NCBI GenBank assembly: GCA_963722075.1
Contig: CAVRJM010000001.1
Coordinates: forward strand, 128,001-192,000
Direction: 5' to 3'
From: Candidatus Babeliales bacterium
GTDB taxonomy: Bacteria > Babelota > Babeliae > Babelales > JANWKD01
DNA length: 64,000 bases
Part shown: piece after piece, positions 10,201-55,113 of the stretch
Numbering within the stretch: position 1 is the stretch's first letter
Layout: every line of letters begins with the position of its first letter
Notes under the pieces: generated by a model
The model's input: the letters and a program-made list of their open reading frames with translations, nothing else
Told to the model about the DNA's origin: nothing
The model's database searches: none
Made by a program: the position numbers and the translations under genes

Positions 10201-11888
10201 TTCCTGGCCAAGGCGGATCATTTACCACGGTGGCAGAAACAAAAAATTGGTTTAATCAAAAAGAGATAGCAATTTTAGATACTGATGCTTCTGAAGTGGA
10301 AGTACGCATTAAGCCATTATATATACTAACAACGTTTCATGTTGGGCTCTATTTTGGTGGTGAATTTATTGATATTGATGCCGTTAAAAAAACCAAAGAA
10401 GCGCCTATTGATTTTGCTCATTTAGCTAAAATGGCGGTATTTAAAAAAGAGGATCAAAATAAACCGGTTAGTTTTGGTATTTATGAGCATGAAGGTAATG
10501 GATGGCTTGCCAATTCAGTAACAGCGCCAGCTTTCCAATTAGGGCAGTGGTATCATATTAAAATGCGCTTATCTGGAACTAACTTATCAGTAAAAATATG
10601 GGCAGAGCCAGAAACAGAACCAGCTACTGATTTTTCATATACCGTAACCGTTTCTCCTTCGCAGAAAATAATTGGGGTAATTTCTTCCGGTGCGTCAGTG
10701 GAATATCAATTTATTAATCCGGCAGTTACTATTACACCAATACCTACATCAAAACCGCCATATTCATTACGGCCAGCAGATAAGTTTTGTGCGTTGCCGT
10801 GTGATTACGCAAATGCAACCTGGCAATCGATTGCGGTGGAACGTGATCGTGAACAGATTGCTCGTGGGCAGATGGATTATTTAACAGCGCCGCAAGCAGG
10901 AATTACCATTGTTGATAAGAGTAACATTTTACGTGGGCAATATATGTATACCACGAATGCTACCAATTTGGTTATTAATGGTAAAAATGTAGAAGATTAT
11001 GTGGTGATGTGCAATATGCAGGATATTGGAACAACTCCTTCGGTAGTTCCTCAATCCATTGGTCAACCACTCAGCAATCTTAATCAAATGCCAGGGACGC
11101 CGTATTTAGCGAGCCTTATTAGTGAAAATACGTTTGATTTTAAAGGCAATTCCAATAACATGAATTTAACTGATTTATTCAGCACCTATTCTACGCAATT
11201 TGGTCCATTTAATGATACGCTATACAATCAATTACAAACGGCGCGAAAAGAATATAAGAATCAAGCGCTTTCGTTTACCTTTGGTTCATTTAAATTACAA
11301 GCAATTGCATCTGAAATTCCTAAAAATATATTTATTTATACTACACCATTGGTTGATGAAAATGGTAAACCAATTAAAGATGCAAAAGGAACACAATTAA
11401 CTGATTATTTCTTACTGACCGAAATTACTTCAGGCCCTTCACCAAGTTATAGTAAAAAGCGCGGAAATCCTGGTATTAGTTATAGTACTATGCTTGCTGA
11501 TAAATCAGTACAATATGGGGTTATTAGTTTAATATCTGGTAATTTATACGGCTCATCAAGTGCAAAGCCTGTAAGTTCAGGATTCTCGCGTTCAATTCTT
11601 CTTAGGAATTTTAATCAGCACAATCAACTTGATCCCGCTATTAAAGCAACCATTGAAACAACTCAGACTGCATATGATACGTATGTAAATGTACAAGAAA
11701 ATACACCAACGCCAAATACCGGATCTGCTTCGCAAGGAACGAATCCTTCTGACGCGGGAACAAAAACTGATCATAAAGGGACCGGAACGGGTAATCCAGT
11801 GCCGCCACAACCGCCTGCTAATAATAGTATTCAACAGCGCACCAATGATGCCAGCGGTGGCCAAATCACCTTTGGCGGGCCGCCGTAA
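7260..11888 (+). CDS. Very large secreted hypothetical protein with hydrophobic helices, coiled coil and ConA/LamG-like domain
   Basis: 1542-aa ORF; signal peptide ending VWA; FQLGQWYHIKMRLSGTNLSVKIW motif. Confidence 0.85.
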   Translation: MKIITQLILIMGLLITPRVWAASFTVDTAASSFKYLQSDSCSFNDANNAVTCKSAGVFQNVKKVTGGTASTGQQLIGSFVDATNKRYDLYATTPQHVIKQTTDLLAAIKATAAVLFNPVDVLSSTTNGPVVTKPNPYSIASLNEKAVNALCGPQGLNLDAKLIQYFKNFYFYLEYVTRLEYAARIAALAAHYNIDMATILDKKSWPDFVQTVQAKAGSWNNLEKALFQPTITPNYLGIMGYIQATSWDELTTSPFWVSLNTITQSSIIKSSFWQKYSKYMVTRSFVQDQTLLLSIKEVEETIFKYIPNIEVAYYNPDFTALRNATEMFHISLLLTDAQRLRIIPSCIDWSMLKDAQNTVDLTQIYTASLEFKQTPFYSIAAMAEDNSQAVYTSVEQNKVSVDINLFKQEPLLQEELILLSMIKVLHGLTNYLYDTDHLEKTMDVLANKNIIQPIPSIFIYAPEDFLYLEDLNLLHNNFKQLATNTTPATTTEQKKQVVQHMMTSMSQQKSSSTPKNVEMQFGFSDLWNGVKDSAESTWDVAKSVGQEAVSFAEDAGKKVAKEAEQLGFGKAVVMLAGMSIKDAQHLLDSAKKIEESVASEIKDGMKTASNFVTDLQDEAEKGIKKMADAITGGCETVTLHFDSELCKSIGGAIQSVADIVVTGIAGDVLMYLKAIGGMIQLTADGIDLIATTAVDVVSGNWGAIGGDLKNGLLSMAADAAVVVLEPLLIQFKYFMQQLMNAIQFCQYFISILTRIFIDATTAVAYALGAEVSMFGSLFGVNINPSDWADTVDTALSEHERLIGTCITTALLLATVPLTGGASIPLLVMTLGPQLFAIYGSYQDDQLAIEQKQEEKEFVQSFSTYVQNNKVIVAQQQQDWAAELHDKYESELENQERGLGFYENLLAHNFEALKEQMSTALGSYWSQLFTPDSLNEIPAQVGSLYGFNTNVYELNPSQGFSLYSAARNSFSQEIAVYPAIAVPGQGGSFTTVAETKNWFNQKEIAILDTDASEVEVRIKPLYILTTFHVGLYFGGEFIDIDAVKKTKEAPIDFAHLAKMAVFKKEDQNKPVSFGIYEHEGNGWLANSVTAPAFQLGQWYHIKMRLSGTNLSVKIWAEPETEPATDFSYTVTVSPSQKIIGVISSGASVEYQFINPAVTITPIPTSKPPYSLRPADKFCALPCDYANATWQSIAVERDREQIARGQMDYLTAPQAGITIVDKSNILRGQYMYTTNATNLVINGKNVEDYVVMCNMQDIGTTPSVVPQSIGQPLSNLNQMPGTPYLASLISENTFDFKGNSNNMNLTDLFSTYSTQFGPFNDTLYNQLQTARKEYKNQALSFTFGSFKLQAIASEIPKNIFIYTTPLVDENGKPIKDAKGTQLTDYFLLTEITSGPSPSYSKKRGNPGISYSTMLADKSVQYGVISLISGNLYGSSSAKPVSSGFSRSILLRNFNQHNQLDPAIKATIETTQTAYDTYVNVQENTPTPNTGSASQGTNPSDAGTKTDHKGTGTGNPVPPQPPANNSIQQRTNDASGGQITFGGPP

Positions 11889-11930
11889 TTAAGTTATTAT
11901 TATTAAAATAACTTGATTAAAGGGAATATT

Positions 11931-12035
11931 ATGTCCAAATGCAAAAAAAATAAGAAAAAGAAGAAAGATCTTTCTGCATTGAGAATTAAGACGAAGGGTT
12001 TAAAATTTAATCGAGAAGAAGCGAATAAACGATAG
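11931..12035 (+). CDS. 34-aa peptide resembling a VapB-type antitoxin C-terminus (orphan or remnant)
   Basis: MSKCKKNKKKKKDLSALRIKTKGLKFNREEANKR; AAGGGA RBS. Confidence 0.45.
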   Translation: MSKCKKNKKKKKDLSALRIKTKGLKFNREEANKR

Positions 12036-12072
12036 AAAGAGAACTAACTCAATTGAGGTAGATTTACGAAAG

Positions 12073-12453
12073 ATGTCGTTGCGAGCTTGCGAAGCAATCT
12101 AGGATATATTATAAACTTCTCAACTGTACATATAAATCACTCCAAGTTGGATTTGCTGATTCAATAAGAGCTAATTTATTTAACCGGGATCTCGCTTTAA
12201 TTTGTTTTTCTCGAACAATTGCAGTGTACATGTCATCAAAAAATTCAACATATACAAGCATTTTGCAATTATATTTTCTGGTAAACTCCACCTTATTATT
12301 TCTATGCTGAAAAATTCGCTGAGCTATATTTCCAGTAACTCTCGTATCGAGAGTACCATTTCGTTTATTTGCCATAATATAAACAGCAGGGCGTTTCATA
12401 GTTTATTAGAATCTAATTTTAACCTGGATTGCTTCGCAAGCTCGCAACGACAT
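12073..12453. mobile_element. Palindromic-repeat element carrying a GIY-YIG gene
   Basis: 31-bp inverted repeats at 12073-12103 and 12423-12453 (1 mismatch) tightly bracket the ORF. Confidence 0.75.
12109..12399 (-). CDS. Small GIY-YIG endonuclease (second motif degenerate)
   Basis: VYIMANKRNGTL..RIFQH..FTRKY..AIVREKQIK..NPTWSDL. Confidence 0.85.
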   Translation of the reverse strand: MKRPAVYIMANKRNGTLDTRVTGNIAQRIFQHRNNKVEFTRKYNCKMLVYVEFFDDMYTAIVREKQIKARSRLNKLALIESANPTWSDLYVQLRSL

Positions 12454-12534
12454 TCTTGTAAATGCATATATTCATGGCTTTGAGCAAAAACTTATTACAC
12501 CACTTTAATTTGAAGATATAACAAATTAATATAT

Positions 12535-13041
12535 TTACCGTGCTATTTTCAATTCAGTAACTGCCTTATCAAGGATTCCATTAATGAATTTATAGGCATC
12601 TTTCTCAGCAAAGCATTTAGCTAGTTCTATAGCCTCATTAATGGCAATGGTAGAAAGGATATCGGTGTTTAATAATTCCCATATTGCATAGCGCAAAATA
12701 AGTTTGGTACACACACCGAGTCGATCAAATCGCCAGTTGCTTAAAAATGGTTTATAAATATCATCAAGTTCATGACGAGAATCAATTATAACACGGGCAA
12801 TCGAAACAACATCGCTATCAAATGGAATGTCTAAATTAAATCCACGATTAACGTTATCTACAATTGCTTCTAATGAAATATCATAATCAAATGATTCTGC
12901 GATATATAAGAGATGAAAAACAACGGATCTTTTTTCTCGTTGATTTAAATCAGTAAACGCTTTCTCCTGATCTTCCTGTATAGGTTCAGGAGTTGCTAAT
13001 GGCTTATTGGGATCTGATGAAAGTTCTAAGCAATGTGACAC
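12535..13041 (-). CDS. nusB: Transcription antitermination factor NusB
   Basis: WRFDRL, ILRYAIWEL, AINEAIELAK, KFINGILD. Confidence 0.95.
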   Translation of the reverse strand: MSHCLELSSDPNKPLATPEPIQEDQEKAFTDLNQREKRSVVFHLLYIAESFDYDISLEAIVDNVNRGFNLDIPFDSDVVSIARVIIDSRHELDDIYKPFLSNWRFDRLGVCTKLILRYAIWELLNTDILSTIAINEAIELAKCFAEKDAYKFINGILDKAVTELKIAR

Positions 13042-16482: not shown

Positions 16483-17278
16483 TTATTAGGTAGTGGTTTA
16501 CTTTACTATATTAAATGTAAAAGCAATTCTTATGAAATGCTATTCCCAAATCCAGGAATTAACCAATTTCAAGGCAAAAAAGAATCTTGTCAGATTAATG
16601 TTCATAAAAGGAAAAAATATAATCCAAATGAAGAAATGAGAAAAATTCTATTTGATAAGCCTTCGGCATATATGGCTGGTGCTCAAATGAAAAAAGGTGG
16701 AATTGTTATAGATCGTACGAAAGAGGATGAAATCTGGTGTTTATTAACAGGATTTAAAAAACTATTCTGGCTAGGCTTTTCTGAAGATGGTGAAATGGAA
16801 AATTTAATAGCCGATGTTAAAAAATTACATCCCGATTTCAATAGTGATATTGGAATACTACAATACGAACATTATATTTTTGGCTGTGAATTAAATAAAT
16901 TGAAAATGAGACCGCTTATTCAAGGTTTTGCATATACCGCCGATGGGAAAGTTAATGCGTTATTATTTGCAAAGCATTATAATGAAACAAGGCTAAATGA
17001 TATCAATGATTATTTAACTGGATTTTTACTTGGTTACAATGAAGAGGATATCTATTTTTATTATGAATGTAACTTCGAATTTCCTGAACAAAAATATACG
17101 CTTGATAAACAGCTAGCTAAAAAATTTATTGAAAAAAATACCCCATCAGTTGAAGAATGGGCTTTAAAGTCGAACAAAATTACATTCATTCAATAACAAA
17201 TTTTTCATTCAATTGGGTTTGGGTTTCATTTCCATATCTAGAAAGTTAACCTAAAAGAATAGCAGTTTGCCAATATAC

Positions 17279-17496
17279 GTCGTTGCGAGCTTGCGAAGCA
17301 ATCCAGGTTTTTAAAATATCTATTTCATAACTATTCATCAGAATTGTAATTGCTTAAATAATATTTTCATATTTGTTTGAAAAACTAATTAGCTTGTTGT
17401 TTGATTAAGGTCTATACTACAATTTACCTAATATTTACACTCTCTAACTTTTTGCTATTTACTTTAGCCTGGATTGCTTCGCAAGCTCGCAACGAC
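17279..17496. repeat. Non-coding copy of the palindromic-repeat element
   Basis: Perfect 29-bp inverted arms at 17279-17307 and 17468-17496 around a 160-bp AT-rich spacer. Confidence 0.9.
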
Positions 17497-17565
17497 ATAT
17501 TGTTTAAGTAAATACTATTCAAAAACTCAAATTAATTTTAAATCGTACTGAATAATAGGTTAAAT

Positions 17566-21736: not shown

Positions 21737-21822
21737 ATAATATCCGAAAGGTTCTGTTGAGTCTTTCTAGAGGTATCATAAAACTAACTCAAAGTAATAA
21801 AATATAAGCAGTTAGAAAAGCC

Positions 21823-22053
21823 GTCGTTGCGAGCTTGCCGAAGCAATCCAGATTAAAATAAATGATAATACAAGCTTATAGAAGATAATAGAATACAGCC
21901 CCGTCAATTATTGAAAAAGGTAAAAATTTATTTTATATAAAACTAATAAATAATTTTTTTCATTGAATGAATAAATCATTGTAATAAATAAACTTATGAA
22001 ATGAATTGAAAAATTTTAATGAACCTGGATTGCTTCGACGAGCTCGCAACGAC
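21823..22053. repeat. Non-coding copy of the palindromic-repeat element
   Basis: Arms at 21823-21852 and 22024-22053; about 170-bp AT-rich spacer. Confidence 0.85.
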
Positions 22054-22239
22054 GTACGTTTATAATTTTATATTATTTGAGCAAGATATTATGCATCTTA
22101 GTGGGAATTTAAAACTTCAAATAAGTGTAAAACTCAACAGAATCTAGCGAGTTTGGCATCTAAAACAGCCTATTTACAAAAAAAGGTCCTTTATTAATGG
22201 GATCCTCACGCTGCGCTCGGACGATAAAAAGAGGGATCA

Positions 22240-39844: not shown

Positions 39845-40055
39845 GTCGTTGCGATCTAGCCTTCGCTCAAGAGCTTCGGCGGACATGGCCCCTGCCGAAG
39901 CAATCCAGGCTCAATTATAAATTTTTTAACTACTGATTTATTAATTAATTTAATGAATTATTAATTACTTTTTTATTAAATTAATGAGCTTTTCCAGGTG
40001 CCTATACTCTTTATTTGGTTTTTAATCTGGATTGCTTCGGCAAGCTCGCAACGAC
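39845..40055. repeat. Copy of the palindromic-repeat element with a nested module in its left arm
   Basis: Arms at 39845-39909 and 40027-40055; insert at 39855-39883. Confidence 0.85.
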
Positions 40056-40169
40056 GGCTTTCTATCTACATATTTTTTAACTTTGAGTAAATCATAATAT
40101 TTCTACAAAAAATCAATTGGAATCTAGTATAGCGTTAAAAATGTATAAGAAAAAATAAGAAAAATGAAT

Positions 40170-44717: not shown

Positions 44718-44736
44718 TTCTATATACTCAAAAAAG

Positions 44737-44953
44737 ATGTCGTTGCGAGCTTGCGAAGCAATCCAGGCTGAACATTTTTCAAAACTACAAGAATTAATTT
44801 ATCTATCCAAAAAACCCGAAATAAGTATGTTTATTATCTTTCCATTATTATTACCAGAATTAATTTGCGTGTAATTAATAGAGCAATTTTTATATAAACC
44901 TGGATTGCTTCTCCGCCGAAGCTCTTCGAGCGAAGGCTGGATCGCAATGACAT
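44737..44953. repeat. Copy of the palindromic-repeat element with a nested module in its right arm
   Basis: Arms at 44737-44767 and 44899-44953; insert at 44912-44941. Confidence 0.85.
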
Positions 44954-54880: not shown

Positions 54881-55113
54881 CTGGATTCTCATCCGTCTTC
54901 GTTAAAACTACGCCGGACAAGCGACCTAATTAAGCCTGACTGGATGTGGGGACTGTGTCCGCCGAAGTTTTTTACTCAATAGTAATTAACTAAGGAAATC
55001 AACGAAGGCGGATCCAGTGAATAAATAAAAAGCCTTTATTCTTTAAAACTGGATTGCTTCGTAACTCATGTCCGCCGAAGCCAACCGGGCGAAGGCTGGA
55101 TCGACTATGGCAT
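54881..55113. repeat. Mosaic cluster of both repeat modules
   Basis: ctggattctca + tccgtcttcg..cggacaag; tccgccgaag..cgaaggcggatccag; ctggattgcttc + tccgccgaag..cgaaggctgga. Confidence 0.75.

Follow-up and report, generated by a model that had tools for sequence, protein, structure and literature searches.

The closest described relative of the locus reported here is the system formed by SsnA of Neisseria meningitidis and its repeat. The sections of Chenal et al. 2025 (Nat Commun 16:2388, PMC11893778) used here describe SsnA as a 94-residue, single-domain GIY-YIG enzyme that binds the NTS (CGTCATTCCCGCGMAVGCGGGAATCYRG), the longer form of dRS3, as single-stranded DNA, with the cut falling a few nucleotides upstream of it, the cutting being abolished and the binding kept in the mutants Y6A, Y17A, and E64A. 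Homologues of SsnA (about cd10448) are widespread, 71% of them with at least one repeat of this kind (SRM) nearby and 42% with repeats on either side of the gene. Besides SsnA, three homologues were found to cut the motif that belongs to them, so that sequence-specific binding and cutting are direct for four, and the Discussion of the same paper likens the arrangement NTS-ssnA-NTS to insertion sequences and to REP/IS200-type transposases (PMC11893778). No later literature on the mobility of Ssn/SRM elements was found among the papers citing this work, as judged by their titles and the beginnings of their abstracts, nor was any found that links GIY-YIG enzymes with repetitive extragenic palindromic repeats or that reports relevant GIY-YIG MITE or inverted-repeat work.

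The repeats themselves have an older history. The CGTC-tagged REPs of Di Nocera, De Gregorio and Rocco 2013 (BMC Genomics 14:522, PMC3733652) have a CGTC or TGTC tag, stems of 8-9 bp, and a CCA tail, occur mostly as inverted dimers, and include dRS3 as the Neisseria CGTC-1 family; a dedicated enzyme is not reported in the sections of that paper on which we draw. Chenal et al. 2025 (PMC11893778) linked dRS3 to the NTS, and the Ssn-related motifs correspond to the CGTC-tagged REPs. The enzyme behind these repeats was an open question in 2013 that was answered in outline in 2025, and the present locus opens no new field.

Two other groups of elements invite comparison. REP/REPIN-RAYT systems likewise have an enzyme gene flanked by a dispersed palindromic repeat, inverted dimers, and a hairpin read as single-stranded DNA, but their enzyme is an HUH Y1 transposase related to IS200/IS605, not a GIY-YIG nuclease, and their tag is GTAG, not CGTC. 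GIY-YIG enzymes cut DNA, and no rejoining or strand-transfer chemistry is known among them. The GIY-YIG homing endonucleases of the I-TevI and SegB type have in common with the locus the catalytic fold and a small, free-standing, selfish-looking gene; they differ in that they bind DNA through a separate domain, cleave double-stranded DNA, and have no enclosing inverted repeats.

The stretch of DNA analyzed here, called the window, comprises 64,000 nucleotides (G000:C1:128001-192000), and its positions are those of contig C1 minus 128000; coordinates with the prefix C1 refer to the contig. The genome amounts to 1.47 Mb in 4 contigs, with 34.7% G+C. At 12073-12453 of the window, between convergent genes, lies a cassette composed of the following parts:

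12063..12106, + strand: left cassette arm, with its core at 12073-12103 (TGTC tag, TTGC...GCAA stem, TCTAGG tail) and including the semi-conserved outer flank ATTTACGAAAGA
12109..12399, - strand: ssn-type GIY-YIG ORF of 96 aa, with Y7, R28, H32, and E64 kept, Y18 replaced by D, and G20 by R
12420..12463, - strand: right cassette arm on the upstream side of the gene, with its core at 12423-12453 and an inner flank, GTTAAAAT, common to both other cassettes of the genome

The arm cores at 12073-12103 (+) and 12423-12453 (-) each match a degenerate 31-mer, in which Y stands for T and C, with 0 mismatches; taken as an inverted repeat, the arms can be followed over 34 nt at 94% complementarity, or over about 44 nt once the outer flank ATTTAC-RA-AGA is counted, and the gaps between ORF and arm measure 5 nt on one side and 23 nt on the other. 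The translated ORF matches the Pfam family GIY-YIG (PF01541, E = 1.2e-8, 35.6 bits against a cut-off of 22.6, residues 5-75) as its sole Pfam family, and searches with the 96-residue protein returned no family in NCBIfam and no relative among PDB sequences. A scan of 11850-12650 for promoters and terminators found no promoter-like site upstream of the ORF and no terminator. The original prediction had placed a 96-residue GIY-YIG ORF between 31-nt inverted arms and had seen in this a parallel to REP/RAYT/REPIN systems with a GIY-YIG nuclease instead of a Y1 transposase; the first point is confirmed by the arms without mismatch and by PF01541, which also identifies the enclosed gene as GIY-YIG and not as a Y1 transposase. 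Its idea of a poorly described class did not survive, as the arrangement, its breadth, and the activity on hairpins are already in Chenal et al. 2025 (PMC11893778).

We are confident that the locus is an Ssn-type cassette, i.e., a single-domain GIY-YIG gene flanked on both sides by its cognate SRM. The protein has one domain and no extra one, at a length close to the approximately 94 residues of the described enzymes (96 aa, PF01541 only), and in tag, stem, tail, and orientation the layout of an SRM is found on both sides of the gene in 3/3 copies of this genome. The positions Y7, Y18, and E64 lie within one residue of Y6, Y17, and E64, which were mutated in SsnA (PMC11893778); the window copy, with D18 and R20, lacks the full set of both tyrosines and the glutamate, which a paralogue at C1:1398408-1398695 possesses. 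The published SRM pattern, HGTCWYN(0-2)YYVSBRHN(0-5)WNVSBRGN(0-2)RNCYNB, matches 0/90 arms, its 2 matches in the genome lying elsewhere, so membership in the SRM class rests on layout and not on the published definition. The same pattern occurs near the gene in 3/30 loci of the phylum and on at least one side in 4/80 loci of other phyla.

Set beside SsnA and NTS, the locus has the same kind of single-domain GIY-YIG enzyme of about 95 aa, an oriented repeat on both sides whose tag is (C/T)GTC and whose tail is C-YRG, and a repeat present in many copies, mostly outside genes. It differs in its stem, which is TTGCGAG...GCAATCC here and TTCCCGCG...CGCGGGAA in NTS, in the weakness of the predicted hairpin, in a window copy without the second catalytic tyrosine, and in its host, an intracellular soil bacterium whose phylum name is absent from the main text of PMC11893778. 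By analogy with the four homologues assayed in PMC11893778, an active enzyme of this genome would bind its motif solely as single-stranded DNA and in one orientation, and would cut a few nucleotides 5' of the tag; the approximately 105 dispersed arms would then be the binding and cleavage sites of the intact copy at C1:1398408-1398695.

A regular expression for the arm ends gives 90 arms genome-wide, and a profile made from 82 short arms gives 105 at E <= 0.05 (96 at E <= 1e-3), 104 of the 105 on contig C1. The consensus of the 82 short arms, aaaaa-n-a-(C51/T31)GTC(G76/A6)TTGCGAG-c-TT-g-(t)-CGAAGCAATCCAG, comprises a CGTC or TGTC tag, a short TTGC/GCAA stem, and a CCAG tail. The tag starts with C in 51 and with T in 31 of the 82 arms and continues with GTC in 82/82, the tail has C in 82, C in 81, and A in 82, and one identical 27-nt core is common to 27 arms. 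The outer flanks are semi-conserved, e.g., ATTTACAAATGTAC or TAGAAAAGCC before the tag. There are also long arm variants (48-62 nt), in which a GC-rich insert (TCCAGCCTTCGC...GGCGGA) stands between TTGCGA and GAAGCAATCC, a repeat nested in a repeat; outside the window, arms with this insert lie at C1:104871, 675570, 1001324, 1008100, 1008278, and 1135711.

Folded as single-stranded DNA with nearest-neighbour parameters, the short arms reach -2.7 to -3.6 kcal/mol (z = 0.08 to 0.95), no better than shuffles. Canonical pairing is limited to about five pairs, (G/A)TTGC with GCAAT, with G.T at the first position in 76/82, whereas CGTC-tagged REPs have stems of 8-9 bp that start with A-T and loops of 4-5 nt. 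The outer stem is supported by compensatory change from T-A to C-G (16 compensated, 1 broken): among 167 distinct arms of other phyla, the third stem pair is T-A in 140, C-G in 16, T.G in 10, and C.A in 1. The invariant CGAAG of the arm may fold into a compact mini-hairpin of the GAA type, in which the G.A pairs would be sheared.

When arms less than 1300 nt apart are counted as neighbours, 30 cases are convergent, with the tags outward, against 3, 1, and 1 (total 5) in the other orientations, and 45 arms are single; 39 single arms sorted by replichore have no strand bias (11+/10- and 11+/7-). The genome-wide count proposed with the original prediction comes to about 105 arms, with 30 convergent pairs among them, and to three copies of the nuclease gene. 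The pairs divide into three nuclease cassettes, with spacers of 290, 311, and 324 nt, and 27 gene-less pairs, with spacers of 34-169 nt in 24 pairs, 244 nt in one, and 835 or 1152 nt in the remaining two. With their tag and CCA tail, and with frequent inverted dimers whose spacers run from tens of nucleotides to about 160, they resemble the CGTC-tagged REPs. At least five units have homologous spacers (71-85% identity over 57-164 nt) and fall in one single-linkage cluster of 10; sixteen spacers match nothing. A profile of the cassette matches 0/27 gene-less spacers at E <= 0.01. One spacer had a short BLAST link to the cassette cluster, which the cassette profile did not confirm.

In the window, a strict search with the 31-mer (up to 3 mismatches) finds 5 matches, against 0 in 100 shuffles. 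The expectation of at least four further occurrences around non-coding spacers is borne out by the profile search, which adds four convergent pairs to the cassette; the strict 31-mer adds three arms only. Besides the cassette, the window contains:

17272..17503, no strand assigned: convergent arm pair without a gene, whose 153-nt spacer has no match among the other spacers
21816..22060, no strand assigned: gene-less convergent arm pair with a 163-nt spacer, 85% identical over 164 nt to the unit C1:337449-337692 (related-spacer family)
39845..40061, no strand assigned: gene-less pair with a left arm (39845-39906) of the long variant, 62 nt in length, inside which lies a GC-rich insert
44732..44951, no strand assigned: gene-less pair whose right arm (44902-44951) is a 50-nt long variant, with a single-stranded DNA fold of -11.8 kcal/mol (z = -2.6)
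55044..55064, - strand: partial single arm, 3' half only (E = 3.8e-3, profile search)

The nuclease itself is present three times in the genome according to tblastn, in 3/3 cases flanked by arms on both sides, and the copies are in different states:

12109-12399, - strand: window copy, with an open frame over all 96 codons
C1:1398408-1398695: intact paralogue, 76% identical to the window copy, with every conserved residue present
C1:1361607-1361846: broken copy, with 2 nt inserted, 24 nt deleted, and a TGA stop

Of 31 aligned homologues from the phylum, the window copy alone lacks the tyrosine and the glycine of the second motif, which reads GTLDTRVT in place of GTLYTGVT. Y18 and G20 occur in 119 of the 120 best database homologues, the window protein being the sole exception, and Y7 and E64 in 120/120. 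From these residues, the window copy is probably cleavage-dead, although a different residue might serve as a substitute in catalysis. Because Y17A in the Neisseria enzyme abolishes cleavage and not binding, the window copy may still bind; on the same analogy, it would occupy the hairpin without cutting it.

A harsher reading, to which we give somewhat less than an even chance, is that the window copy has lost all function and is a pseudogene at an early stage. It draws on the changes polarized with an outgroup equidistant from both open copies (78/96 identical to each), four of which, Y18D, G20R, G70R, and K74N, fall in the window copy at sites conserved at >=0.91, on the state of the third copy, already broken by frameshift, stop, and deletion, and on the want of a promoter-like site upstream in the scan of 11850-12650. 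It has to contend with 96 codons that are all open, with a number of derived changes that equals that of the intact copy (9 vs 9), and with a pairwise dN/dS of 0.15 between the two open-frame copies (dS 0.94, pS = 0.54). Such a ratio denotes constraint over most of the divergence, so the window copy may still have a function. The arms of these two cassettes differ at only about 3-4 per 38 positions, which, given nearly saturated synonymous sites, means that the arms are constrained or homogenized; as far as the sequences can tell, they are kept constant through selection or concerted evolution and not through recent copying alone.

The same genome has three small GIY-YIG ORFs of a different type, missed by the Ssn query, at C1:371244-371456, C1:1122058-1122270, and C1:1112723-1112932 (L036-L038). 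They lie about 100-200 nt downstream of a tRNA gene (Gln, Gly, and Glu); that of L036 has 79 aa, and one of the three contains an in-frame TGA.

Beyond this genome, 4492 database homologues of similar length were found at E <= 1e-5, many of them at 60-70% identity. Within the phylum, inverted arms that combine a (C/T)GTC tag with an ATCCAG-like tail occur at about 24 of 30 loci, on stems that vary (TTGCGAG, TCCTGAGG, TCCCGG, TCCTCGAC, TGCTGAAC, TCACGAGG); at the other six, one of which lies at a contig edge, inverted repeats are weak or missing. The 80 closest homologues in named genomes (50-69% identity, from a single-protein query) come from Alpha- and Gammaproteobacteria, Nitrospinota, Bacteroidota, Cyanobacteria, Planctomycetota, Patescibacteria, and others, and the same arm class lies within 300 nt of the gene, tags outward, in 64/80 of these loci and on both sides in 44/80. 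Close homologues hence do generally have flanking palindromes, and the association between nuclease and repeat put forward by the original prediction is real and general, with 3/3 copies here and 64/80 close homologues elsewhere. In two relatives (L015 and L027), the nuclease ORF extends into the downstream arm, and its C-terminal peptide (...DPETSSG and ...DPGSSPG) is a translation of the hairpin.

The covariation of nuclease clade and repeat that had been anticipated is also seen. A tree of 29 proteins, with three truncated rows left out, resolves two clades (SH-aLRT 97), and on it the arm class, labelled for 24 rows, changes 4 times against a shuffled mean of 9.5, with 0/500 shuffles as low, the clades partly following host families, so that this is not independent of kinship. 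G108, a genome of the same genus, nevertheless has a 56%-identical nuclease with TCCTGAGG-type arms and 0 arms of the class described here. The nearest homologues in named genomes are proteobacterial (L039-L046, 66-69% identity), compared with 64% for the best in the bacterium's own family (L002-L003), which suggests that cassettes have been transferred between phyla.

The expectation that repeat abundance follows the nuclease holds in part. The arm pattern occurs at least 6 times in 17/261 genomes of the phylum, and 14 of these 17 have a homologue at E <= 0.001; the three arm-rich genomes without one are 95%, 59%, and 66% complete, and among the other 244 genomes 72 have a match at this threshold, the weak ones of which may be other GIY-YIG families. 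Against the expectation stand two genomes. In the same-genus genome G108, the cassette has only its own 2 flanking arms genome-wide. The second, G040 (95% complete), has 24 arms, and a homologue search detected no Ssn homologue in it. All 24 arms are on one strand in two dense clusters (C1:52439-56035 and 108694-113151), which is array-like and unlike dispersed pairs. A further genome, G093, carries at C44:4829-5120 a 35-aa nuclease remnant with a stop codon between two arms, possibly an intermediate on the way from a cassette to a gene-less pair.

These counts bear on what the arms are. They could be structural or regulatory hairpins of the host, REP-like and acting on transcripts or on DNA topology, with the nuclease as a passenger that homes into existing pairs, the repeat then being independent of it. 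The preponderance of gene-less pairs over cassettes (27 to 3), the 24 arms of G040 without a detected homologue, and the intergenic position of the arms, such as that of 12073-12453 between convergent genes, fit this reading. We nevertheless consider it improbable: that one arm class accompanies a nuclease clade over many phyla (64/80) and changes with the clade is hard to explain by host hairpins, nothing terminator-like was found at the cassette, and sequence-specific binding and cutting are direct for four homologues in the sections of Chenal et al. 2025 used here (PMC11893778).

The history of the site was traced through relatives. In a same-genus genome, the efp-nusB neighborhood is syntenic with that of the window, and nusB is separated from a large surface-type gene by a 72-aa ORF and by a gene with a PIN domain (PF01850, E = 6e-16). 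The window retains a remnant of the former:

11913..12035, + strand: 40-aa ORF, remnant of the 72-aa ORF, with the last 22 residues recognizable at 77% identity

By this comparison of sequences, the cassette occupies the place of the PIN gene. In the same-genus locus L031:2065-2689, the 72-aa ORF overlaps the PIN-domain gene as a VapBC-like pair, of which the PIN gene is missing in the window. The cassette is absent at the orthologous nusB locus of 3/3 relatives of the same family, so it is not ancestral at this site. The empty-site comparison suggested with the original prediction gave no clean empty site, the relatives being too diverged (NusB 67-68% identity). In soil runs from two studies, contigs span the cassette together with its two junctions, and among contigs of 4 soil or peat runs none bypasses the cassette, a result that says little as contigs drop rare variants. 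No target-site duplication was seen at 25 pairs.

In one proposal for how the repeats multiplied, the cassette is the autonomous form and the gene-less pairs are non-autonomous, moved or copied in trans by the GIY-YIG nuclease, as a counterpart of RAYT and REPIN. This is compatible with the Ssn identification, to which it adds that the enzyme causes the spread, and we consider it less likely than not. Several observations agree with it: about 105 arms here and 0 of the same class in the same-genus genome, the identical 27-nt core of 27 arms, the 30 convergent pairs with homologous spacers in at least five units (57-164 nt at 71-85%), the orthologous nusB locus that lacks the cassette in 3/3 relatives, the proteobacterial affinity of the closest named homologues (66-69% against 64% in the family) with the transfer between phyla that it suggests, and the 35-aa remnant of G093 as a possible intermediate. 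Other observations pull the other way. Neither a target-site duplication (25 pairs) nor an empty-site form (contigs of 4 soil or peat runs) was seen, the cassette profile matches 0/27 gene-less spacers, and the 39 single arms have no replication strand bias. G040 holds 24 arms with no homologue detected in a genome 95% complete, and G108, whose cassette has only its own 2 arms, indicates that a cassette alone does not lead to amplification. The chemistry, too, is a difficulty, as GIY-YIG enzymes cut DNA and are not known to rejoin it.

A fuller version of this proposal, about which we are more doubtful still, takes the genome to hold the full series of stages, i.e., an intact nuclease copy, one that has lost catalysis, a broken one, and 27 gene-less pairs spread in trans by the Ssn nuclease. 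In that series, the open copy that has lost catalysis may act as a regulator that binds hairpins without cutting, or as a protector of the sites.

Within the frame of an Ssn-type cassette, three things are new at this locus. The first is the arm class GTCRTTGCGAG...CGAAGCAATCCAG, which escapes the published pattern and yet accompanies one nuclease clade over many phyla; the reported association of 71% is for this reason probably too low, and motifs specific to each clade are called for. The second is that, within the phylum, the arm class goes with the nuclease clade. The third is a natural Y-to-D variant at the very tyrosine whose alanine mutant binds without cutting. The Y18D copy and its intact paralogue, side by side in the same small genome, are a ready-made pair for separating binding from cutting. 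Moreover, with about 105 sites, 30 pairs, and three cassettes at varying stages of decay in 1.47 Mb, this compact genome makes the question of how such repeats multiply a tractable one.
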